Source: an uncultured Candidatus Saccharibacteria bacterium (GTDB taxonomy: Bacteria; Patescibacteriota; Minisyncoccia; UBA6257; HR35). Taken from it: a stretch of 64,000 nt of DNA. Every line of letters starts with the position of its first letter. The stretch's first letter is position 1. The translations under genes and the position numbers were made by a program. The notes under the pieces were generated by a model. The model worked only from the letters and a program-made list of their open reading frames with translations, was not told the DNA's origin and searched no databases. Shown here piece by piece: positions 471 to 54,742 of this stretch. The stretch covers positions 8,564 through 72,563 of the forward strand of contig CAZZNB010000042.1 of assembly GCA_964655375.1 (NCBI GenBank), read 5' to 3'.

Positions 471-471
471 T

Positions 472-2004
<1,533 letters not shown>

Positions 2005-2035
2005 TTTAAAATATCCATAACTATATTCTTAGCTG

Positions 2036-2096: not shown

Positions 2097-2489
2097 ATGA
2101 CAATAATAATGAAAATCTTAATAGTAGAAGACGACAAATTTTTGAGATTATTATTGGAAAGAAAATTAAAAAATGAAAATTTTGAAGTTATTTCTGCAGA
2201 AGATGGAGAAGAAGCTTTAGAAAAAATTGTTACTGAAAAACCTGATCTGATTTTACTGGATATTATATTACCTAAAAAAAGCGGATTTTCTGTTTTAGAA
2301 GAAATCAATAAAGATGAAAATTTAAAAAAAATTCCTGTTTTTATAATATCAAATTTAGGACAACCAGAGGATATCGAAAGAGGAAAGAATTTAGGAGCAA
2401 AAGAATATTTTGTAAAAGCAGGTTTGTCTTTGGAAGAACTTATTAAAAAAATTAAAATCTTTGCTGTAGAATTTTTATCCACAAAATAA
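2097..2489 (+). CDS. Stand-alone response-regulator receiver protein, CheY/PilH-like
   Basis: MKILIVEDD...PDLILLDIILP...K motif set, 130 aa, no output domain. It sits next to a pilin gene. Confidence 0.8.
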   Translation: MTIIMKILIVEDDKFLRLLLERKLKNENFEVISAEDGEEALEKIVTEKPDLILLDIILPKKSGFSVLEEINKDENLKKIPVFIISNLGQPEDIERGKNLGAKEYFVKAGLSLEELIKKIKIFAVEFLSTK

Positions 2490-2518
2490 CTTGATTTTTT
2501 GTAATTTAGTATTATAAT
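2476..2518 (+). promoter_or_regulatory. Candidate sigma70-type promoter for the pilin gene, preceded by a TTATCCACA box
   Basis: TTATCCACA at 2476-2484, then 7 nt, then TTGATT at 2491-2496, a 16-nt spacer, and TATAAT at 2513-2518. Confidence 0.5.
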
Positions 2519-2579
2519 TTTATAAATAAATTAAATAATAAAATTTAAAAGGCCGTGATTAAAAATTAATTTTTTATAA

Positions 2580-3215
2580 ATGCAAAATAAAAAAGTCGGG
2601 TTTACCTTAATTGAGTTAATAGTTGTTTTAGCTATAATCGGAGTATTAGTCGGTATATTAGTGGCAGTTATAAAACCACAACAAATATTTGCAAGATTAA
2701 GAGACACACAAAGACAATCTGATTTAAATAGATTAGCAAACGCAATACAAACATATATCGCAGAATTTGCTCAAGATCCTTCTGCTATTGTTTTAACAGG
2801 AGATCCAGGAATAGGAGGGACAAACGGATGTGTAGGAGGAAGCACCTCTACAGTTTATTATTCAGCTAATACTCAACCAACTAGTACACCTTCTGGCTTT
2901 GCTCGTGTAAGAGCTTCAACATCTACAGCAGTTGATGGTACAGGTTGGTTACCAGTTAAGTTTGCTTCAGCAACAACACTTAATTTGGCTGCTTTACCTA
3001 TTGATCCAAGAAATTCTAATTATGATGCTAACCCATCTTTTTATTACACTTATGCTTGCAGAACTGATTTTAATTTCGAATTAAATGCTAATCTAGAAGT
3101 AATGACTGATGCAGAACAAAATGATGGTGGGGATATTACCACCCTGTATGAAGTAGGCCCAGATAAAACTATATTACCTACTACAACATCTGCTAACTTT
3201 TATCCTAATCCTTAA
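2580..3215 (+). CDS. Type IV pilin-like protein, class III signal peptide
   Basis: N-terminus MQNKKVGFTLIELIVVLAIIGVL. The C-terminal part is Thr/Ser/Gly-rich. G+C content is higher than in neighbouring genes. Confidence 0.8.
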   Translation: MQNKKVGFTLIELIVVLAIIGVLVGILVAVIKPQQIFARLRDTQRQSDLNRLANAIQTYIAEFAQDPSAIVLTGDPGIGGTNGCVGGSTSTVYYSANTQPTSTPSGFARVRASTSTAVDGTGWLPVKFASATTLNLAALPIDPRNSNYDANPSFYYTYACRTDFNFELNANLEVMTDAEQNDGGDITTLYEVGPDKTILPTTTSANFYPNP

Positions 3216-4606: not shown

Positions 4607-5054
4607 TTGAGTTTATTTCATAAATTTGTGTTGCTTTATCGATAAATAAAATTCCCTTTAAATGGTCATATTCATGCTGAATGATATGAGCTAAAAGCCC
4701 TTTTGCTTTCATAGTTTTTTCTTTGCCAGATAGAGTTTGATATTTTATTTTAATTTCTTTTGCTCTCTTTACAAATCCATATTTATTTTTAATACTTAAA
4801 CAACCTTCCTCTTTTAACTCTTCTCCTTTTGTTTCGATAATTTCAGGATTAATAAAAACATAAAATTTATCTTTCGGTTTAGCAATAAAAATTGCCAAAT
4901 CAATACCTATTTGGTTAGCAGAGATTCCAATACCTCCTTCCCTAACCATAATTTTTTTCATTTTTTCTATTATTTGTTTAATTTCTTTATCAATTTTTTC
5001 AACCTTCCTCGCTTCTTTTTTCAAAATTTTATTTGGATATAGAACTATCTCCAT
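4599..5054 (-). CDS. def: Peptide deformylase
   Basis: Motifs GIGISANQIG, EGCLSI and HEYDHLKG. Overlaps fmt in a def-fmt operon. Confidence 0.9.
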   Translation of the reverse strand: MEIVLYPNKILKKEARKVEKIDKEIKQIIEKMKKIMVREGGIGISANQIGIDLAIFIAKPKDKFYVFINPEIIETKGEELKEEGCLSIKNKYGFVKRAKEIKIKYQTLSGKEKTMKAKGLLAHIIQHEYDHLKGILFIDKATQIYEINSND

Positions 5055-12148: not shown

Positions 12149-14207
12149 CTTTTAAAGATACATAAATTTTCCCATCTTCAGAAATATTTTTTATCCTTAC
12201 TTTTAGTTTTTCTCCTAATTTTATTTCTTTTTCAATGTTATCTATTCTTTTATTTGCAATTTCAGAAATATGTAATAAAGCAGTACGATTACCTCCTAAA
12301 TTTAATATAGCACCAAATGGCATAATTTTTATAACTTCCCCCTCTATTAACTCGCCTATTTCATAGGAATTAGTATAGGACTTTATTAACTTTTCAGTTT
12401 CTTTAAGTAATTCTTCATTTTCTGCAGAAATATAAACAGTTCCATCTGGTTTTATATCTATTTTTGCATTTGTAATTGCTATTATTTCATGAATGTTTCT
12501 GCCACCAGGACCTATTAGTAATCCAATCTTTGAAGGATCTATTTTAAGCAATGAGACATAAGGCACTCCCTCTTTCAATATTTTTCTTGGCTCGTTTATT
12601 TTTTCATACATCATATCTAAAATTTTATTTATAGCATCTATTGCTCTTTTTAATGATTCCTCTATAATTTTAGGTGTTAAGCCATCTATTTTTACATCAA
12701 GCTGAATAGCGGTAATTCCATCTTTTGTGCTAGCAATTTTAAAATCCATTCCCCCAAAGAAATCTTCAGGCCCTTGGATATCAGTTAGTAATTCATAATT
12801 TTCTTCATCTTGATATACAATTCCTATGCTTATTCCTGCAGCATGTTTTTTAATAGGAACACCTGCATCAAAAAGAGCTAAAGAAGAAGCACAAACACTT
12901 CCCATAGAGGTAGAACCATTTGAAGATAAAACATCAGATACTACTCGGATGGTGTAAGGAAATTTTTCTTCAGAAGGAACTAAATTCTTTAAAGCTTTTT
13001 CAACTAAATTTCCATGTCCAATTTCTCTTCTTGATGGGGCCCTAGGTGAACCTGTTTCTCCTACTGAATATGGAGGGAAATTATAATGGTGCATAAACCT
13101 TTTAAAGCCTTCAAATTCAATTTCTCTAACCCATAATTCTTCTCCTAATGATGCCAAAGTTACTGTAGAAAGAATATGTGTTAGTCCTCTTTTAAATAAT
13201 GCAGATCCATGAGTCTTAGGCAAAACACCTACTTCAATCTCTATTTTTCTTATTTCATCTAACTTCCTTCCATCTGGTCTAATTTTATTTTCTAAAACTC
13301 TCCTTTTAAAAATATCTTCTATTTTTAATAAAATCCCCTTATAAACTAAATCAAAATTATCTATAAATTCCCTTTCTTCATTTAATATATCAAAAATTTG
13401 ATATAGCTCAGGTCTTTCTTGAAAATTAAATAATGCTTTTTCTATATCTAAGTTATGCTTTTTTAAAAATTCCTCCCCATACTTTATGAAATTTTTAGTG
13501 TCAATTGTAATAGGCACAAATTTATTGATGTTTTCTTTAATGACATCCTCTAAAAAACTTATAACTTTATTTATCTCTTTTATTCCTATTTCACAAGCTT
13601 TAACAATATCTTCTTTCTTAACTTCTTGCCCCTCTAATTCAATCATATTAATCTTATTTTTAATTCCTCCTAAAAATATAGTAAAATCTGCACCAGATCT
13701 TTCAAGTTCTGTCGGATAAAAAATAAAATTATTGTTTTTTTTACATATTTTAACTGCTCCTACAGGCCCCTTCCATTCAAATCCTAAAAGTCCAACTGCC
13801 AAAGATGAACCCAAAAATGCCAATATGTCTGGATCAATTTCAGGGTCTAAAGAAAAAATAGTATTTGTAATTTGGAGTTCATAATTAAAATTTTTCAAAG
13901 TAGGTCTTATAGATCTATCAATTAATCTTGCATTTAAAATAGCTGTTTCAGACGGCCTACCTTCTCTTCTAATGAATCTACTTCCGTAAATTTTTCCAGC
14001 AGCATAATATTTTTCTTCATAGTCTACAGTTAAAGGAGTAAAATCAATACCCTCTTTTTTATCACCCAAAACAACTGTTGTTAAAACTAATGTCCCTTTA
14101 CATTTTGATAACAAAGAGACATTAGCCCTTTGTGCCCAATCATTTATTTCAAATTCAATCTCAAAACCATTTTCTGGATTTAATGTTATTTTATACTTCT
14201 TTTTCAT
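12138..14207 (-). CDS. pnp: Polynucleotide phosphorylase
   Basis: Two RNase PH domains followed by KH (GPGGRNI) and S1 domains; 689 aa. Confidence 0.95.
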   Translation of the reverse strand: MKKKYKITLNPENGFEIEFEINDWAQRANVSLLSKCKGTLVLTTVVLGDKKEGIDFTPLTVDYEEKYYAAGKIYGSRFIRREGRPSETAILNARLIDRSIRPTLKNFNYELQITNTIFSLDPEIDPDILAFLGSSLAVGLLGFEWKGPVGAVKICKKNNNFIFYPTELERSGADFTIFLGGIKNKINMIELEGQEVKKEDIVKACEIGIKEINKVISFLEDVIKENINKFVPITIDTKNFIKYGEEFLKKHNLDIEKALFNFQERPELYQIFDILNEEREFIDNFDLVYKGILLKIEDIFKRRVLENKIRPDGRKLDEIRKIEIEVGVLPKTHGSALFKRGLTHILSTVTLASLGEELWVREIEFEGFKRFMHHYNFPPYSVGETGSPRAPSRREIGHGNLVEKALKNLVPSEEKFPYTIRVVSDVLSSNGSTSMGSVCASSLALFDAGVPIKKHAAGISIGIVYQDEENYELLTDIQGPEDFFGGMDFKIASTKDGITAIQLDVKIDGLTPKIIEESLKRAIDAINKILDMMYEKINEPRKILKEGVPYVSLLKIDPSKIGLLIGPGGRNIHEIIAITNAKIDIKPDGTVYISAENEELLKETEKLIKSYTNSYEIGELIEGEVIKIMPFGAILNLGGNRTALLHISEIANKRIDNIEKEIKLGEKLKVRIKNISEDGKIYVSLKDAR

Positions 14208-14713
14208 TTTCTTATTAAAATGTAATCTTTTAATTCATCTAGATCATAAAAAAAATCTGCTAACTCTTTTAATTTTACAGAAGTATTTCTTCCAAATCCA
14301 GCTATTTCTACAATATTACCTTGATTTTTTAAATATTCTACTAAAGGTGCAAAATCTCCATCACCAGATACTATTATTATTACATCTAAAAACTTAGAAA
14401 GTCTAATTGTATCTACTGCTATACCTACATCCCAATCTGCCTTTTTTTCGCCACTTGGTAAATAAATTATATCTTTGATCCTTAATTCTATTCCTTTTAA
14501 AATTAAAGCTTCAAAAAACGAAATCTCTTTAGGACTAAGATCGGATTTTATAACATAAGCGATGCTTCTTATAAGATTCCTTCCTTGGTTTAAAATTTCA
14601 ACTAATTTCCCAAAATCTACATTTTTCCCGTAAAAATTTTTTGCAGAATGATAAATATTCTGGGTATCAATGAAAATACCTACTCTTTGTGAAGAAGAAG
14701 CAAATGGATTCAT
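14204..14713 (-). CDS. NYN-domain (LabA-like, PIN-fold) predicted RNase
   Basis: VGIFIDTQN...[10 protein letters not shown]. The protein is translationally coupled between rpsO and pnp. Confidence 0.7.
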
Positions 14714-14967
14714 AACTTCAATAATTCTTTAAGTTTTTTATATCTAGTAACAGATTTTCTTTCTAAATACTTCAACAATTTTCTTCTTTGTGCTATTTTT
14801 AATATGAGCCCTCTTTTAGAATTATAATCCTTTGGATGTTTTTGTAAATGCTTAGTCAAATTAATAATTTCTTCAGTCAAAATAGCAATTTGAACCTCGC
14901 AAGATCCTGTGTCTTTTTCATGTTTCCCAAATTTTTTTATTATTTCTTGAACTTTACTATTTGCCAT
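14710..14967 (-). CDS. rpsO: Ribosomal protein S15
   Basis: MANSK...[20 protein letters not shown]; 85 aa. Confidence 0.9.
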
Positions 14968-15893
14968 TAAATAATTTTAAAATATTAAATATGAAAAAGC
15001 AAGAAGGGGAAAATTACCTTAAATCTTTGATTTTTCAATTTGTAAAATATTTAGAAATAGTTAAAGGAAGATCGGAAAGCACAAGAAAGATCTATGTTAA
15101 TAGACTGCTGAAATTTTTTGAATGGTTTGATAAGAATCAATATAAAAAGATTAATAAAGATGTAATTTGGCAATTTAGGATATATTTATCAGAACAAAAA
15201 TTGAGCAAAAGAACTCAAGTACATTATTTAATAGTTCTTAGGAATTTTTTAAAATTTTTAAAAAAAGAATTAAACTTAGATGTGATAGATTTTACTCAAG
15301 TAGAGTTACCTAAATTACCAGAAAGAGAAATTAAGATTTTAAATGAATCAGAATTAGAAAAATTATTAAATGCTCCTAAGGGGAATGACCTTAAATCATT
15401 AAGAGATAAAGCTATATTAGAAGTTTTATTTAGTACAGGATTGAGGGTTTCTGAACTATGTTCTTTAAATAGAGATATAGATATAGAAAAAGGGGAAATT
15501 ATCATAAGGGGTAAAGGAAATAAAATAAGAACTGTCTTTTTATCTGAAAGAGCCAAAAAAGCAATTAAAGACTATCTGGAAAATAGAAATGATAACCATC
15601 CAGCATTATTTATTTCTTTAGCTCGAAATACAGAACCTAGAAGATTGTCTGTAAGAGCTATTCAAAAAATTATCAAATCTTACGCTACCAAAGTAGGAAT
15701 TATTAAAAATGTTCATCCACATGTTTTAAGACATCAATTAGCTACCTTTTTGATTTCAGCAGGAGTTAATCTAAGAGCTGTTCAAGAAATCTTAGGCCAT
15801 AAAAATATCTCTACAACACAACTTTATACTCATATTTCTAAGCCTGAATTGAAAGAAATTTATGAAAAAATTATTAATAAAAAATTAAGATAA
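14961..15893 (+). CDS. Tyrosine site-specific recombinase of the XerC/XerD type
   Basis: C-terminal catalytic motifs HVLRHQLAT and [14 protein letters not shown]. The start is probably the internal ATG near 14991. Confidence 0.8.
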
Positions 15894-15933: not shown

Positions 15934-15984
15934 GGTCGAAGAAATGAGGCAGGCTTAAAAGCCGTAAGGCCTCATGAGATCAAA
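15934..15984 (+). promoter_or_regulatory. Candidate L10 leader, an autoregulatory 5' UTR structure
   Basis: Hairpin ATGAGGCAGGCTTAAAAGCCGTAAGGCCTCAT at 15944-15975 immediately upstream of rplJ. This is the position where the L10(L12) leader is normally found. Confidence 0.45.
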
Positions 15985-16868: not shown

Positions 16869-16916
16869 AATATTTTTTAAAATCTTAAAAGGTCGTGATT
16901 AAAATTAATTTTCAAA

Positions 16917-23057: not shown

Positions 23058-25221
23058 TTATATTTTCTTTAAATTCTTCTATATTTTCAATTAATATTTT
23101 GCGAGGTTTAGTTCCCTCCTGTGGGCCTACTATTCCTTTTTCTTCTAAAATATCCAAAATTCTAGCTGCTCTTGAATATCCTATCTTTAATTTTCTTTGT
23201 AAAAGCGAAGTAGAAGCCTTCCCTGTTTCTAAAATTATTTGAAATGCAGCTTTAACTAATTCCTCCTCTGTCTCTTCAGTTTCTAAAGTATCTTTTGGTT
23301 TTTCATATTCTTCTAAAGAAATTTCTTCTTTTTCAAAATCTTCTTTTTCTAAAGCTTGTTTTGCCCAAAAATCAACAATCCTTTCTATCTCTTTTTCTGT
23401 AACAAGTGGTGCCTGTATTCTTTTCATGCCGCCAAATATATTACTTATAAAAAGCATATCTCCTGCACCTATTAATTTTTCAGCTCCACTATAATCTAAG
23501 ACAGTTCTTGAATCAACTTGAGAAGCAACTTTGAAACATATCCTATTAGGAATATTAGCTTTGATTAAACCCGTAACAACATTTACTGAAGGCCTTTGTG
23601 TAGCTAAAACTAAATGGATCCCTGTTGCTCGTGCCATTTGAGCTAATCTAACTATAGCAGATTCTATAAGGTTTCCTTGTTTTATCATAAGGTCAGCCAT
23701 CTCATCTATAATAAAGATAATTCTCGGCATTATTTTCCTCTTTTTTTGAATTTGTAACTTATTATAAGAATCAATATCGCGCACTCTATAATTTTGAAAT
23801 TCTTTATATCTTTTTTCCATTTCATCTATCAACCAGTTCATCACTGAAACAACTTTTTTGACATCTAAAATAGGATCCATCAGAAGATGGGGCAAATTTT
23901 CATATCTAACAAGCTCTATCCTTTTAGGATCTACTAATACTAAATTTAAAACTTCTGGTGTGTTTTTCATTAAGAGAGATATTAATAAAGAATGAATAAA
24001 AACTGATTTTCCTGCGCCTGTAGTTCCAGCTATCAAAATATGTGGCATAAGCGCAAGATCCGCATAAAATGGCTCTCCTGTTATTAATCTTCCTAAGGGG
24101 AAAAGTAATAAACTTTCACTTTCCAAAAATTCAGGGTTTTCAATTAAAGATCTTAATCTTACAATTGCTGATTTAATATTTGGAACCTCAATCCCTATTA
24201 AGGCCCTTCCAGGAATAGGAGCTTCCATTCTTATATTTTGGACTGCTAAGGCTAAAGCTAAATCATTTTGCAAAGCTAAAATTTTAGAAAGTTTTACTCC
24301 CTCTGGCGGTTTTATTGCATATCTTGTTACAGTTGGCCCAATTGTAACCTCTACTACCTCTACATTAATTCCAAAATTTTCAAATGTAGTTTTAATAATT
24401 TCTATATTTTCTTTAATATCACCGCTATCAGGCCTGCTTTCTGTTTTATCTAATAAAGAAATAGGTGGTAGTTCCCATGATGTTTTTATTGGCAATTTTT
24501 TCAACCTTATTTCTTCTTTAACTTCTTGTTTTATTTTTGTTGGCCTTATGATTTCCGGAGACTTTGTAATTTCCTTCTTTTCTTTAATCTCCTTCTTTAC
24601 TTCTTTTGTATAATCTTCTATTTCAACTCCCTCCTTTTTGAATCTTTGTAAAATTAAACTTAAAATTTCTGAAAAGGGTTTTTGGAAAATAATACTTAAA
24701 GATATAAATGATAAAATAATTAAAACAATAGCCAACCCTAATCTTCCTAAATAATTTTCAAAAGATAATAACCATTTACCAATAACCCCTCCATCTTGAA
24801 AAATAATTTCAGAAAAAACAGAGAACACTAAAAACAAAACTAAAAGAGCTAGCGAACTACTTATCTTCCAATTAATATTAAATCTTAATAACCAGCTTAT
24901 TCCTAAAAATAGAAATAGTAAAATTAGTCCAAAATGTGATATTCCAAAAATTTTAATAATAAAATTTTTATAATAATTTCCTAAAACTCCGCCCTTATTA
25001 AAGTCTGAAATGACTGTAAAGATTGATAAAAATATAAATAGCCATCCTAAAATCTCTGTAAACAAATAGCTGTCTTTTAATTTATTTAAGGCCTCTAAAA
25101 TCTCTTTTATTTTTTGAGGCTTTTCTTTATTGTTTTTTTTCATAAAAATATTATAAAACTTGACAAAAAAATATATAAGCTTTAAAATTTTATTAGAAAT
25201 TTGAAATTTAGTTATCCACAA
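23038..25221 (-). CDS. ftsK: DNA translocase FtsK/SpoIIIE
   Basis: N-terminal TM helices, Walker A AGTTGAGKSVF and a gamma winged-helix domain at the C-terminus. The likely true start is the MKKNNKEK methionine near 25143. Confidence 0.9.
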   Translation of the reverse strand: MWITKFQISNKILKLIYFFVKFYNIFMKKNNKEKPQKIKEILEALNKLKDSYLFTEILGWLFIFLSIFTVISDFNKGGVLGNYYKNFIIKIFGISHFGLILLFLFLGISWLLRFNINWKISSSLALLVLFLVFSVFSEIIFQDGGVIGKWLLSFENYLGRLGLAIVLIILSFISLSIIFQKPFSEILSLILQRFKKEGVEIEDYTKEVKKEIKEKKEITKSPEIIRPTKIKQEVKEEIRLKKLPIKTSWELPPISLLDKTESRPDSGDIKENIEIIKTTFENFGINVEVVEVTIGPTVTRYAIKPPEGVKLSKILALQNDLALALAVQNIRMEAPIPGRALIGIEVPNIKSAIVRLRSLIENPEFLESESLLLFPLGRLITGEPFYADLALMPHILIAGTTGAGKSVFIHSLLISLLMKNTPEVLNLVLVDPKRIELVRYENLPHLLMDPILDVKKVVSVMNWLIDEMEKRYKEFQNYRVRDIDSYNKLQIQKKRKIMPRIIFIIDEMADLMIKQGNLIESAIVRLAQMARATGIHLVLATQRPSVNVVTGLIKANIPNRICFKVASQVDSRTVLDYSGAEKLIGAGDMLFISNIFGGMKRIQAPLVTEKEIERIVDFWAKQALEKEDFEKEEISLEEYEKPKDTLETEETEEELVKAAFQIILETGKASTSLLQRKLKIGYSRAARILDILEEKGIVGPQEGTKPRKILIENIEEFKENINGSEIE

Positions 25222-25256
25222 TTAAAACTTGACTTTTAAAATATATGCCTTATAAT
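25212..25256 (+). promoter_or_regulatory. Candidate sigma70-type promoter for the surface-protein gene, preceded by a TTATCCACA box
   Basis: TTATCCACA at 25212-25220, then 8 nt, then TTGACT at 25229-25234, a 16-nt spacer, and TATAAT at 25251-25256. Confidence 0.5.
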
Positions 25257-25373
25257 TATTCTAAATAACAATTAAGGTCGCAATTAAATAATTAAATTAA
25301 TAAATTGATTAACAAATAACCTACGCTCGTGCCCATAATTGTGGCAGAGCAATAAGGTCGATTAAAAAATAAT

Positions 25374-27335
25374 ATGGAAATGAAAAAATCTTTAGTTTAC
25401 CTTGTAGCCTTTGCTACTTTATTTTATTTTCTATCACCAGTCGGTTTATTAAAAGCACAAACTTGTGATCCAGACGCTTTAAGCGCTGTTAAAAATCCTC
25501 AAAATGTTTTAAGGTTTGGTGCAAGAAATTCAGCAGTTAGAAACTTACAAGCTTGTTTAATAGAAGCAGGATATAATATTCCTGCAGGTGCTACAGGCTA
25601 TTATGGTACTCAAACAAGAAGTGCAGTAAAAGAATTTTATGCGGAATGGTATGGAGCATGGCATGGAAATTGGGTAGGTCCTCAAGGAGTAAGTCAACTT
25701 GTAAGTCTTGTTAAAGGTGTACAAGAAGAAGTTGTAACAGAACAACCTGAACAACCAACAACAGGAATTTCACCAGATTTATTAGCTCAAGTATTACAAA
25801 AAATTCAGGCTGGTGATATTCAAGGAGCTTTAAGCTTATTATTAGCTGCCTTAGGAGGTGCTCAACTTCCTCCAACAACACCTGAACAACCTACAGCTGA
25901 GCAACCAACACAACCTGAGCTTGCAGGAGAAGCAACAGTAGAAGTTAGGCTAGCAGCAGTTCCAGGTGGTGGTGTGGTTATAAAAGAAGGTGAATCAGCT
26001 GATGTTTTAGGTGTTAGAGTTATTTCTAAAAATGCACCTTCTGAAGTTCAAAGATTAAGAATGGTTTTGACCTCTAATGTAGTACCTACAAAATTGTTCA
26101 ATTCCTTTGATCTATATGTTGGTAATGAAAAAGTTGCTTCTCTTCCTGCAAATGAATATAATCGAACTGACGTCTCAACATATGAATACACATTTACAGG
26201 CTTAAAAGTAAGAGTACCTGCTAATGGAGAAGTAACTTTAGTTGTAAGAGTTAATGTCAACCCAACAGTAGATAGCGGAGATATTAATAATGCTGGTACC
26301 TTATCTTTAGAAGTTAGAAGTGGCGACTTAAGAGCTGTAGATGGCGCTGGAATTCAACACACTCCTAGCGTAACTGGTACAGTAAAAAGAGAGTTTTCTG
26401 TAGAAAAAATCACTCCATCTGGAGTAGCTTTAGTAATCTACAAAGATCAAGCATCACCTGCTTCAAATAATTTTGCTGCTGATGCAAACAGAGATGTTAA
26501 AAATGTAGAACTTGTAAGATTTGTTTTAAGAGCAGATAATGATACTCTAAAGGTATTAAAAATAGAAATTCTTCCTACTTTTAGTAACTTAACTGTATCT
26601 TCTCTTAAGTTAGTTGATGCTAATGATAATACTATTGATAGTGTAACTAATGTTACTTCTGGGACAACCACTGAATTTGCTGCAGTAGATTTTGCTACTC
26701 CATTAATAACTATTAATAAAGATCAAAAAGTTGTTTTGAAAGTTGTGGGTGACTTAAAAGTTGATCAAAGTCTAGCTACTGAAACACCAGCTACCATTCA
26801 AGTGACAGTAACAGCAGCTGAAGCAGAACGAGCATCAGATCAAGGCGGTCAACCTTCTACTGGTAGTGCTACAGGAGATACTCAATATATCTATAGGGTA
26901 GTAGCTGCTCAGTGGAAAGTATTAGAAGCTTTAGCTTCTGCTACAAGGGGTGAAAATGAGCCCACTTCTACATTAAATGCAGTCTTTAAAGTTCAAATAA
27001 CTGCTCAAAGAGGCGATGTATATATCCCTCAAAGTGGTGCCTTTACTGCTTCATCTACAGGAGCAGCTACAGTCGATATGGGAAGCCCAGATGTTACTCC
27101 AATTAGCGGAGTTGAAACTAGTGGTGCCTATTACGTAGTTAGAAATGGAAATACTGGTGTATTAGAAGTAAAATTTGCTAAGACACCAGATTCATGGACT
27201 CCAGGATGGTATCAAGTTAAATTAAATACTATGAAGTGGGATAATGACGAGACTCCTAGTACAGAAATGTCTACAACTTTCCCAGGAACTGTTGAAACTA
27301 AGACTCTAACAAATTCTGTGTATATTTCTAAGTAA
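25374..27335 (+). CDS. Secreted surface or cell-wall-associated protein with an N-terminal peptidoglycan-binding (PG_binding_1-like) domain, a Pro/Thr/Gln linker and a beta-rich body
   Basis: Signal peptide, then a PG-binding-like segment (LRFGARNSAVRNLQ...GYYGTQTRSAVKEF) and a linker (EQPEQPTT...PPTTPEQPTAEQPTQPE). G+C content is visibly higher than in flanking genes. A strong terminator follows. Confidence 0.6.
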   Translation: MEMKKSLVYLVAFATLFYFLSPVGLLKAQTCDPDALSAVKNPQNVLRFGARNSAVRNLQACLIEAGYNIPAGATGYYGTQTRSAVKEFYAEWYGAWHGNWVGPQGVSQLVSLVKGVQEEVVTEQPEQPTTGISPDLLAQVLQKIQAGDIQGALSLLLAALGGAQLPPTTPEQPTAEQPTQPELAGEATVEVRLAAVPGGGVVIKEGESADVLGVRVISKNAPSEVQRLRMVLTSNVVPTKLFNSFDLYVGNEKVASLPANEYNRTDVSTYEYTFTGLKVRVPANGEVTLVVRVNVNPTVDSGDINNAGTLSLEVRSGDLRAVDGAGIQHTPSVTGTVKREFSVEKITPSGVALVIYKDQASPASNNFAADANRDVKNVELVRFVLRADNDTLKVLKIEILPTFSNLTVSSLKLVDANDNTIDSVTNVTSGTTTEFAAVDFATPLITINKDQKVVLKVVGDLKVDQSLATETPATIQVTVTAAEAERASDQGGQPSTGSATGDTQYIYRVVAAQWKVLEALASATRGENEPTSTLNAVFKVQITAQRGDVYIPQSGAFTASSTGAATVDMGSPDVTPISGVETSGAYYVVRNGNTGVLEVKFAKTPDSWTPGWYQVKLNTMKWDNDETPSTEMSTTFPGTVETKTLTNSVYISK

Positions 27336-36709: not shown

Positions 36710-36749
36710 TTTACAATAATTTAAGGTCGCAATAAAAATATATCTAAAA

Positions 36750-47773: not shown

Positions 47774-48764
47774 AAAAATAGTAGAAGTAGAAAAATTTAA
47801 AGATTCCCTTATGTTATTAAATTATATTATAATTGAATTCAAAGCTGAAACACAAATCTCTAGTATATTACAAACATCCCAAATTTTTGAAGAAAATTTA
47901 GGTAAAATACTAGAAGAAGCCAGTAAAGAATTCAAAACAAAAAATGTAGTATTTTCAATCCCTTCTTCTTATGTATTTTCCAGTTATTTTTCCTTACCTC
48001 ATATGCCAATTTCTACTTTAAAACAAGCTATTTTTTACGAATCCAAAAAATATCTTCCAACATCAGAAAAAGATTATTATATAGATTGGAGAAATTTATT
48101 ATTACAACCTGTTGGGATAGAAACAACTCCTAAATGGTTTATTTTCTTTTCAGCTACTCCAATAAATTTTATCGAAAAACTTAAAAGTGTATCTAATATA
48201 GCAAGATTGAAATTTAAAGCTGCAGAAGTAGAATTTTATGGATTAGAAAATTTATTTAAAAATGTTAATGATAATATTATAGTTGTGGATATAGGATATG
48301 GATATAGTTACTCTATTCTAATTACAGAAAATAAAGTAATATTCATACAAAAAATTAAAATATCAACTAGGTCTGTAATAGATACTATAAAAAGCTTATT
48401 AGAAATAAGCGATGAAGAAGCAGAAAATTTTTTGATTAAAAAAGGATTTAAATTAATGCCTGAAGAAATTGAGTTAAAGAATAATTTAGAAGAAATTTTA
48501 AATAATTTATCTTTAGAAATTAATAAAACAAAAGATAATTTAGAAGAAAGATTTAATACTAAAATTAAAGGGATATATTTTATAGGTGGATTAAGCTTGG
48601 TACCAGGTTTTTTAGAAAAAATATCTGAAAAAATTCCCACAGTTCCCGTAAATGTATTTAATCCTCTAGATTTTATAAATGTGGATAAATCTCTAAAAAA
48701 TTTACAAATAGGTCCGATACTTACAAATGCTTTAGGAGTTTGTTTAAAATATTTTTATCCTTGA
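47697..48764 (+). CDS. pilM: Type IV pilus assembly protein PilM
   Basis: ILGIDLGTKNIKIVEV with an actin-like fold, followed by pilN and pilO. The true start may be MLSLT near 47715. Confidence 0.75.
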   Translation: MLYNLKMLSLTLGKRILGIDLGTKNIKIVEVEKFKDSLMLLNYIIIEFKAETQISSILQTSQIFEENLGKILEEASKEFKTKNVVFSIPSSYVFSSYFSLPHMPISTLKQAIFYESKKYLPTSEKDYYIDWRNLLLQPVGIETTPKWFIFFSATPINFIEKLKSVSNIARLKFKAAEVEFYGLENLFKNVNDNIIVVDIGYGYSYSILITENKVIFIQKIKISTRSVIDTIKSLLEISDEEAENFLIKKGFKLMPEEIELKNNLEEILNNLSLEINKTKDNLEERFNTKIKGIYFIGGLSLVPGFLEKISEKIPTVPVNVFNPLDFINVDKSLKNLQIGPILTNALGVCLKYFYP

Positions 48765-54163: not shown

Positions 54164-54207
54164 TTATCCACAATTTAATTTTCAATTAAATTTTTTTATT
54201 GTATAAT
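54164..54207 (+). promoter_or_regulatory. Candidate promoter for the pilin gene, preceded by a TTATCCACA box
   Basis: TTATCCACA at 54164-54172, then 8 nt, then TTCAAT, a 15-nt spacer, and TATAAT at 54202-54207. AGAGGTCG lies at 54226-54233. Confidence 0.45.
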
Positions 54208-54262
54208 TTATTATATAAATAATTTAGAGGTCGAATTAATAAAAAAATAAAATAATTAAAAA

Positions 54263-54742
54263 ATGAATAAAAAAGCATTTACTTTAGTCGAATTAGCAGT
54301 AGTTCTTTTAGTAATAGGTATTTTAGCAGGTCTATTATTAAGAAACTTAGGAGGCTTTACATCTTCAGCTAGGGATCAAAGAAGAATAGGAGATTTAAGG
54401 AATGTTTCTGCGTATATTACATCTTATTATTCAAGACAAGGTCAATATCCAACTGCCACCAATTGGGCTGATTTAGAAAATCAATTAAGGAATGCAGGTG
54501 TATTAGGGCCTGGCGTTAATTTACCAAGAGATCCATCTTCTCCTAATAGAGATTATGAATATGCTCATTGTACTTCAGCAGGAGGAGTAATCACTAATTA
54601 TATATTGAGAGCTGTCTTAGAAGCTTCAAGAGACCAAGCTCCTCAATTATACCAAGGTGCTATAACAAACATCCCACCTGAACTAACGTGCAATCCTAGT
54701 ATTACTTGTGGTGGAAATAACGAGTATTGCCTCTTATTCTAA
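54263..54742 (+). CDS. Type IV pilin, candidate major pilin
   Basis: MNKKAFTLVELAVVLLVIGILAGLLL with C-terminal Cys pairs. Relatively G+C-rich. Confidence 0.8.
   Translation: MNKKAFTLVELAVVLLVIGILAGLLLRNLGGFTSSARDQRRIGDLRNVSAYITSYYSRQGQYPTATNWADLENQLRNAGVLGPGVNLPRDPSSPNRDYEYAHCTSAGGVITNYILRAVLEASRDQAPQLYQGAITNIPPELTCNPSITCGGNNEYCLLF

Follow-up and report, generated by a model that had tools for sequence, protein, structure and literature searches.

Single consensus DnaA boxes immediately upstream of pilin and surface-protein promoters in a Patescibacteria genome

The function of DnaA as a transcription factor is already well known. In E. coli and B. subtilis, its targets include ribonucleotide reductase and the ftsL (mraZ) operon (PMC8203912). 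DnaA regulates nrdAB in E. coli, and a corresponding role has been put forward for B. subtilis and Caulobacter (PMC8203912). In E. coli nrdAB, consensus DnaA boxes lie just 5' of a sigma-70-type -35 element, and DnaA is an activator at low occupancy and a repressor at high levels of DnaA-ATP. The promoter combines a cooperative pair of boxes with a box specific for ATP-DnaA (PMC8203912, PMC11317965), and the mechanism proposed for its high-affinity boxes is the stabilization or recruitment of RNA polymerase (PMC8203912). The DnaA regulon of B. subtilis (dnaA, sda, and the ftsL operon) ties replication status to division genes through clusters of several boxes; DnaA binds the ftsL promoter region in vivo (PMC8203912), and no pilin or surface-protein targets have been described in this regulon.

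The element reported here comes from a 64-kb stretch of DNA, which was analysed as a whole and is referred to as the window. Three of its promoters resemble that of nrdAB in having a consensus DnaA box just 5' of the -35 element, and ribonucleotide reductase itself is a recurrent target of the same element in Patescibacteria. However, the promoters in the window have one box each, with no recognizable low-affinity neighbours and no evident nucleotide-state switch, and their targets are pilins and an envelope protein. The likeness to B. subtilis is that the Patescibacteria element recurs before mraZ, the first gene of the ftsL operon. In Caulobacter, pilin synthesis is tied to replication and the cell cycle via DnaA, GcrA, CtrA, and pilA, with CtrA boxes at pilA; this link to pilA is indirect, whereas here the initiator's own (predicted) box stands at the pilin promoter. 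The same geometry was found before dnaA in two Clostridia, with TTATCCACA followed by 8 nt (L028) or 7 nt (L046), a -35 element, 16-17 nt, and TATAAT, but there the target is dnaA itself; the binder at these two promoters is presumably DnaA, acting in autorepression. In our literature search, pilin genes were not among the known DnaA targets, and we found no earlier publication that places DnaA boxes at pilin promoters or describes a DnaA regulon for Patescibacteria. What is new are the targets (pilins, an envelope protein, and HU), the phylum, and the regular single-box geometry, with membership in a DnaA regulon provisional.

The three promoters precede the genes at 2580, 25374, and 54263 (Table 1). 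The original prediction, made from the sequence of the window, had described a common arrangement before these genes, and the counts bear this out, as the composite TTATCCACA-N7/8-TTSAHT-N15-17-TATAAT occurs three times in the window against a mean of 0.00 over 100 shuffles. The five exact copies of TTATCCACA, which it had judged to be several-fold above chance, compare with 0.46 expected (a maximum of 2 in the shuffles, with five or more copies in 0 of 100) in DNA with a GC content of 28%. The -35/-10 pattern by itself is matched at no more than seven places in the window; the 9-mer stands at the matching offset in three of the seven and is the top 9-mer that they have in common. All three promoter copies show exact 9-bp identity to the consensus DnaA box and have the same orientation, with 29-30 nt between box and TATAAT and a gap of 7-8 nt between box and -35. 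When the -10 element is set at -12 to -7, the predicted span of the box is about -51 to -42, with its centre at -46/-47. Apart from the motif blocks, the three promoters have no extended mutual similarity. The 14-mer said to be common to the second and third copies was found again as AGTTATCCACAATT, and the descriptions of the downstream genes also held, with methylation motifs in both pilins (2580 and 54263) and a PG_binding_1 domain in the protein of gene 25374; the first copy, placed at 2476-2484, has to be moved by one nucleotide to 2475-2483.

One-mismatch variants of TTATCCACA are not enriched in the window (25 against 17.7 expected), and no degenerate copies with up to two mismatches were found there at the right distance from an intergenic -10 element. 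The flanks of the three sites contain no second DnaA box and no double box with its members 2-3 bp apart. The two remaining exact copies, in the 16S rRNA gene and antisense within pilM, have no downstream -35/-10 elements and are probably incidental. TTATCCACA is absent from the rRNA (16S), rpoB, EF-Tu, and rplJ promoters of the window. A DnaA-box cluster of the oriC type was considered and rejected, since the promoter boxes lie 23-29 kb apart, one at each promoter, with no dnaA nearby. A DNA uptake sequence or repeat element was rejected on the grounds that the copies are too sparse and too specifically placed.

Table 1. Coordinates of the promoter elements, leader motifs, and associated genes in the 64-kb window
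Feature	Position	Strand	Details
16S rRNA gene	471-2005		no 23S gene after it; 3' end near 1990-2005
9-mer copy in 16S rRNA gene	513-521	-	exact; without promoter context
DnaA-box 9-mer, promoter 1	2475-2483	+	TTATCCACA; overlaps last codons of CheY-like response-regulator gene 2097-2489
Core promoter 1	2491-2518	+	-35 TTGATT 2491-2496, 16-nt spacer, -10 TATAAT 2513-2518
Promoter 1, whole layout	2475-2518	+	box-to--35 gap 7 nt
Leader motif AGGCCG	2550-2555	+	24 nt 5' of ATG
Pilin-like gene	2580-3215	+	211 aa, N-terminal methylation motif
DnaA-box 9-mer, promoter 2	25212-25220	+	exact TTATCCACA
Core promoter 2	25229-25256	+	-35 TTGACT 25229-25234, 16-nt spacer, -10 TATAAT 25251-25256
Promoter 2, whole layout	25212-25256	+	box-to--35 gap 8 nt
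5' leader of surface-protein gene	25275-25360	+	AGGTCG twice (25275-25280, 25355-25360), hairpin 25325-25350
Secreted 'surface protein' gene	25374-27335	+	653 aa, PG_binding_1 domain
9-mer copy in pilM coding region, antisense	48680-48688	-	exact; without downstream -35/-10
DnaA-box 9-mer, promoter 3	54164-54172	+	2 nt 3' of pilC stop codon
Core promoter 3	54181-54207	+	-35 TTCAAT 54181-54186, 15-nt spacer, -10 TATAAT 54202-54207
Promoter 3, whole layout	54164-54207	+	box-to--35 gap 8 nt
Leader motif AGGTCG	54228-54233	+	29 nt 5' of ATG
Pilin gene	54263-54742	+	159 aa, N-terminal methylation motif
AGGYCG leader copies	2550-2555, 16890-16895, 25275-25280, 25355-25360, 36724-36729, 54228-54233	sense	also GGTCG near 15935

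Promoter 3 lies in a pilus gene cluster with the order pilM and three unannotated ORFs (together pilM-N-O-like), two genes for T2SSE-family ATPases (pilB/pilT-like), pilC, pilin 54263, and prepilin peptidase. When PilC was used as the query against metagenomes, nine loci were obtained, eight of which include the pilC-pilin spacer. TTATCCACA is exact in all eight orthologous spacers, with PilC identities from 99% down to 54%; it is the sole nine-column invariant run in the alignment, while flanks and spacers drift, and the borders of the invariant block are exactly those of the 9-bp DnaA box. The distance from box to TATAAT is held at 29-30 nt in the orthologs, even in two that have a poor -35 element (L125 and L126), and a box-to--10 distance that is held despite a poor -35 is typical of activator-dependent promoters. 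The box of promoter 2 is kept in the orthologs L024 and L114, whose proteins are 61% and 37% identical to that of the window, and the box of promoter 1 is kept in Ca. Paceibacter KUB_Bin06 (L037), where it also follows the 16S and response-regulator genes. Orthologs of all three promoters have thus retained the 9-mer, contrary to the loss from orthologous upstream regions that the original prediction had named as speaking against it. Candidatus Paceibacter sp. KUB_Bin06 is the closest named relative among the matches listed, with about 88% identity over the 16S-to-pilin region. Together with the features of the 16S gene, this places the organism among Patescibacteria (CPR) of the Paceibacteria type.

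The surface-protein promoter of KUB_Bin06 (L114) is identical to positions 25212-25256 of the window at 44 of 45 nucleotides, spacers included, although the protein is only 37% identical and the 16S region about 88%. This near-identity indicates either an unusually strong constraint on the promoter or an exchange of promoters between lineages. The leader hairpin of the surface-protein gene is also conserved in L114 and L024, with two compensatory base-pair changes among the three sequences, and AGGTCG stands directly 3' of it.

A fourth TTATCCACA with the same spacing was found in the same organism before the gene of the nucleoid protein HU (L001, 20389-20480), about 650 nt past the right end of the window and after the RNase Y gene. 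In this promoter, the -10 element TAAAAT is 29 nt 3' of TTATCCACA, and the leader contains AGGTCG.

The composite pattern was also scanned for in one genome per species (GTDB), which gave at least 116 matching loci. At least 50 of the 116 matches listed have Patescibacteria labels, in a phylum that accounts for no more than a few percent of species and for still less of the total bases; the scan pattern required a downstream promoter, and this estimate of enrichment is semi-quantitative. The lineages among the matches listed are Paceibacterota, Uhr-, Nealson-, Nomura-, Niyogi-, Magasanikii-, and Taylorbacteria, Minisyncoccia, and "Saccharibacteria". Genomes with several different sites among the matches listed have Patescibacteria-group labels or the generic label 'bacterium' (AUK069), and KUB_Bin06 has four such sites (L037, L076, L085, and L114); the only non-Patescibacteria genome that was matched twice among them is a Bacteroidales genome, with two identical sites. 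At the same mean GC of 0.38, 44 of the 50 Patescibacteria matches listed lie outside long open frames, as against 32 of the 66 from other taxa. Downstream genes were tallied by Pfam for 43 proteins, from the Patescibacteria-group matches and ten matches with generic or doubtful taxon labels. Among the matches listed, these comprise pilins (5), class II ribonucleotide reductase (4), MraZ (4), LexA (2), C5 DNA methylase (2), PG_binding_1 protein (2), rpoB (1), and EF-Tu (1).

At 32 further strong promoter-like sites, taken from the window and from Patescibacteria loci, nothing close to the box stands at its offset. The box is thus selective and marks a subset of promoters, that is, a regulon, rather than serving as a promoter element in general. 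The co-regulation of pilins and the surface protein that was originally suggested finds support in their common, position-fixed, and oriented element; its restriction to surface structures does not hold, as reductase, mraZ, lexA-type, and HU promoters carry the element as well. The positions directly 5' of the box weakly favor A and G (31 and 23 of 53 Patescibacteria sites). No inverted box was found upstream of promoters in 130 loci, a set that had been selected for the forward form and so gives no useful background.

On balance, we lean towards the interpretation that the three promoters each carry a single high-affinity DnaA box near -46 and that DnaA most likely activates their transcription, a view that we hold with modest confidence. 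We infer both the binding by DnaA and the activating effect from sequence. As to the binder, the original prediction had allowed for DnaA or another regulator; the exact consensus and the overlap of regulons make DnaA the most plausible candidate, an identification that stays putative. DnaA is favored because the conserved block is the exact 9-bp consensus and because the gene classes overlap known DnaA regulons. Selective constraint is confined to the 9-bp box, in the eight orthologs and at 53 sites with weak flank preferences, and the targets of the element share nrd, dnaA, and the division operon with known DnaA regulons. E. coli DnaA prefers pairs of boxes in vivo, with a preferred spacing of 2 bp (PMC11317965). 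A match in Minisyncoccia (L093, minus strand, near 1203-1222) has two consensus DnaA boxes 2 bp apart, TTATCCACAagTTATCCACA, directly 5' of the -35 element, and this double box at the spacing preferred in E. coli also favors DnaA, as does the report that Paceibacterota encode DnaA (bioRxiv 10.1101/2025.01.22.634366). A tblastn search for dnaA in the window and all fetched loci found only the two Clostridia genes and none from Patescibacteria, and the 8 kb to the left of the window contain ClpB, LytR, Mur ligase, and diadenylate cyclase genes and no dnaA. The single-box nature of the sites in the window and the absence of pilins from the known targets count against DnaA as the binder.

These last points lead to a rather unlikely alternative, in which the 9-mer is the operator of another regulator, either an uncharacterized Patescibacteria factor or a small paralog that consists only of the C-terminal domain of DnaA. 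Such a factor would control pilin, envelope, DNA-metabolism, and division genes. It would account for targets as unclassical for DnaA as pilins and for the weak A/G preference, which lies outside the classical DnaA box, and it would fit the single boxes, since in E. coli cells DnaA was bound at only 13 of 32 consensus boxes that stand alone, a poor occupancy (PMC11317965). However, the conserved block corresponds to the exact DnaA consensus with no further invariant flank, and another regulator would compete with the DnaA reported in Paceibacterota for DnaA's own highest-affinity site. Moreover, the nrd and ftsL operon targets overlap known DnaA regulons, and the same layout precedes dnaA in Clostridia.

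If DnaA is the binder, a monomer of this lineage's protein would occupy the single box with its C-terminal DNA-binding domain and, from there, would touch RNA polymerase (sigma region 4 or the alpha C-terminal domain), most likely stimulating transcription. A recruiter in contact with RNA polymerase is proposed because orientation and distance are fixed and because the box is kept at promoters with a weak -35 element. Class I activator sites of the CAP type have their centres at about -61.5 or farther from the start, and they keep to the same helix face. The original prediction of a class-I-type site does not agree with this, since the box abuts the -35 element, with its predicted centre at -46/-47 and 29-30 nt from the -10; as judged from these distances, its position appears closer to class II or proximal-UP than to class I.

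A second alternative, which we regard as unlikely, is that DnaA binds the box but does not activate, and instead either represses, in that it blocks the -35 element or the alpha-CTD/UP contacts, or is titrated by boxes along the chromosome. DnaA does repress many of its known targets, for example dnaA, mioC, and guaB (PMC8203912, PMC11317965), titration by dispersed boxes is an established model (PMC12371093), and the lexA-type promoters with a box have consensus -35 and -10 elements and seem not to need an activator. However, titration needs neither a fixed orientation nor a fixed distance of 29-30 nt to the -10 element, and in the case of repression the box is clear of the -35, the -10, and the start site, the usual places of DnaA repression. 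The box is also kept where the -35 element is poor (L125, L126, and TTCAAT in the window), which speaks against both. Repression and titration would fit the geometry less well than activation by DnaA.

It is very improbable that the 9-mer is the binding site of the division-cluster regulator MraZ, a reading suggested by the resemblance of its GTGG-type repeats to an inverted DnaA box. MraZ operators share the GTGG/CCAC core with the 9-mer, some of their repeats in relatives are inverted DnaA boxes, and the mraZ leaders of L076, L032, and L071 contain arrays with exact TGTGGATAA units. However, MraZ operators are phased arrays of at least three direct repeats at about 10 bp, and those in the mraZ leaders comprise 4-6 direct repeats with a period of about 10 bp, which read along the sense strand and either follow the promoter or overlap it, whereas the boxes of the pilin and surface-protein genes are single, in the opposite orientation, and 5' of the -35 element, without phased CCAC neighbours. 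All nine positions, beyond the CCAC core, are invariant in orthologs, and in L069 the repeats (GTGAAG/GTGGGG/GTGGAA) are unlike DnaA boxes while the upstream element is still exact TTATCCACA. After examination of four mraZ leaders, MraZ was rejected as the binder on repeat number, phasing, and orientation.

Finally, it is hardly credible that the 9-mer arose by chance, belongs to promoters in general (as an UP element would), or was left over when one promoter was duplicated. The AT-rich genome and the incidental look of two of the five copies (16S and pilM) speak for such a reading, but it was effectively refuted by the 32 promoter-like sites without a box, the conservation in orthologs with diverging flanks, and the zero composite sites expected from shuffling. 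UP elements are A/T-rich, lie at -40 to -60, and occur at the strongest (rRNA) promoters, whereas the 9-mer contains three cytosines and is absent from the rRNA (16S), rpoB, EF-Tu, and rplJ promoters and from the 32 other sites. Outside the motif blocks, the three promoters also have no extended similarity.

With activation by DnaA as the preferred reading, the pilin, surface-protein, and HU genes would be expressed in step with the cellular DnaA level, i.e., replication status. Across Patescibacteria, the ribonucleotide reductase, mraZ/cell-division, and lexA-type promoters with the same device would make up a replication-linked regulon, into which the lineage of the window would have recruited type IV pilins and its major envelope protein. 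We put forward only tentatively, as a generalization that may well prove too broad, that DnaA is a phylum-wide promoter-proximal activator which, via a single box at -46, times pili and envelope, HU, dNTP supply, the SOS repressor, and division. If true, cell-cycle control would here be reduced to a minimal circuit, and this circuit could be the basis on which epibionts change between cells that are attached and replicate and cells that are piliated and disperse. Patescibacteria have very few transcription factors, and their regulation is almost unknown. For attachment to the host, for motility, and for the uptake of DNA, Patescibacteria depend centrally on type IV pili (PMC10633639). A conserved and readily recognizable cis-element before pilin, envelope, ribonucleotide reductase, lexA, and mraZ genes allows a concrete hypothesis of a regulon through which replication and the epibiotic way of life would be connected. 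Saccharibacteria can now be transformed and carry reporters, so that this hypothesis is directly testable.

All three leaders also contain the motif AGGYCG followed by an A/T-rich tract (ATTAA-like), which the original prediction had missed. Outside the 16S gene, AGGYCG has eight copies in the window, six of them in sense-strand 5' leaders; five leader copies lie 13-29 nt 5' of start codons, namely those of the two pilins, the surface protein, EF-Tu, and an ORF of 84 aa that follows rplL. Orthologous leaders have kept the motif, and it is also present in the leaders of Uhrbacteria ribonucleotide reductase. A role as a substitute Shine-Dalgarno sequence was rejected, since its spacing to ATG (13-37 nt) is too variable and it could pair with the 16S tail over only 4 bp. 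Rfam gave no RNA family in the leaders, including those of loci without an ORF after the promoter. The 3' tail of the 16S rRNA reads GGACCAATTC, not GGATCACCTCCTTA, and the CCUCC anti-Shine-Dalgarno is missing; about half of Parcubacteria have been reported to be without it (PMC9297842).

The scan gave several further observations on individual promoters. The lexA-type Patescibacteria promoters (L019, L049, L053/L119, and L008) have a common -35/-10 spacer, TTTCGGTTTTTGTTCGG, in which a LexA operator probably lies. In the Uhrbacteria ribonucleotide reductase promoters (L021 and L091), NrdR-like palindromes flank the -10 element, as NrdR palindromes lie around the -10 of E. coli nrd. The class II ribonucleotide reductase gene that follows a box promoter in L007 (3996-7871) contains an intein with a LAGLIDADG endonuclease domain.

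The mraZ leaders of L076 (4534-4610), L032 (3445-3530), L071, and L069 have phased GTGG-type arrays, presumably MraZ operators; the promoter with exact forward TTATCCACA lies 5' of these arrays, and in some lineages the repeats read TGTGGATAA, the inverted DnaA box. In L076 (about 4780-4980) and L032 (minus strand), the box promoter is about 400 nt upstream of mraZ and first drives a tiny lysine-rich ORF (MAKKKAAAAKK...), which is followed by a terminator-like hairpin.

Single-cell genomes of Pelagibacteraceae were also matched (L013, L020, L051, L058, L067, L074, L102, and L121). In at least six of these eight (L013, L020, L051, L074, L102, and L121), the box promoter precedes one and the same 436-aa gene (MLDLIIKNG...), which, judged by the match to the box, is a separate conserved case of a putative DnaA-box promoter outside Patescibacteria.

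Two other genes of the window were noted, one for an NYN-domain protein (14204-14713) and one for a tyrosine recombinase (14961-15893; phage integrase family, possibly XerC/D-like), the latter adjoining the rplJ-rplL operon.
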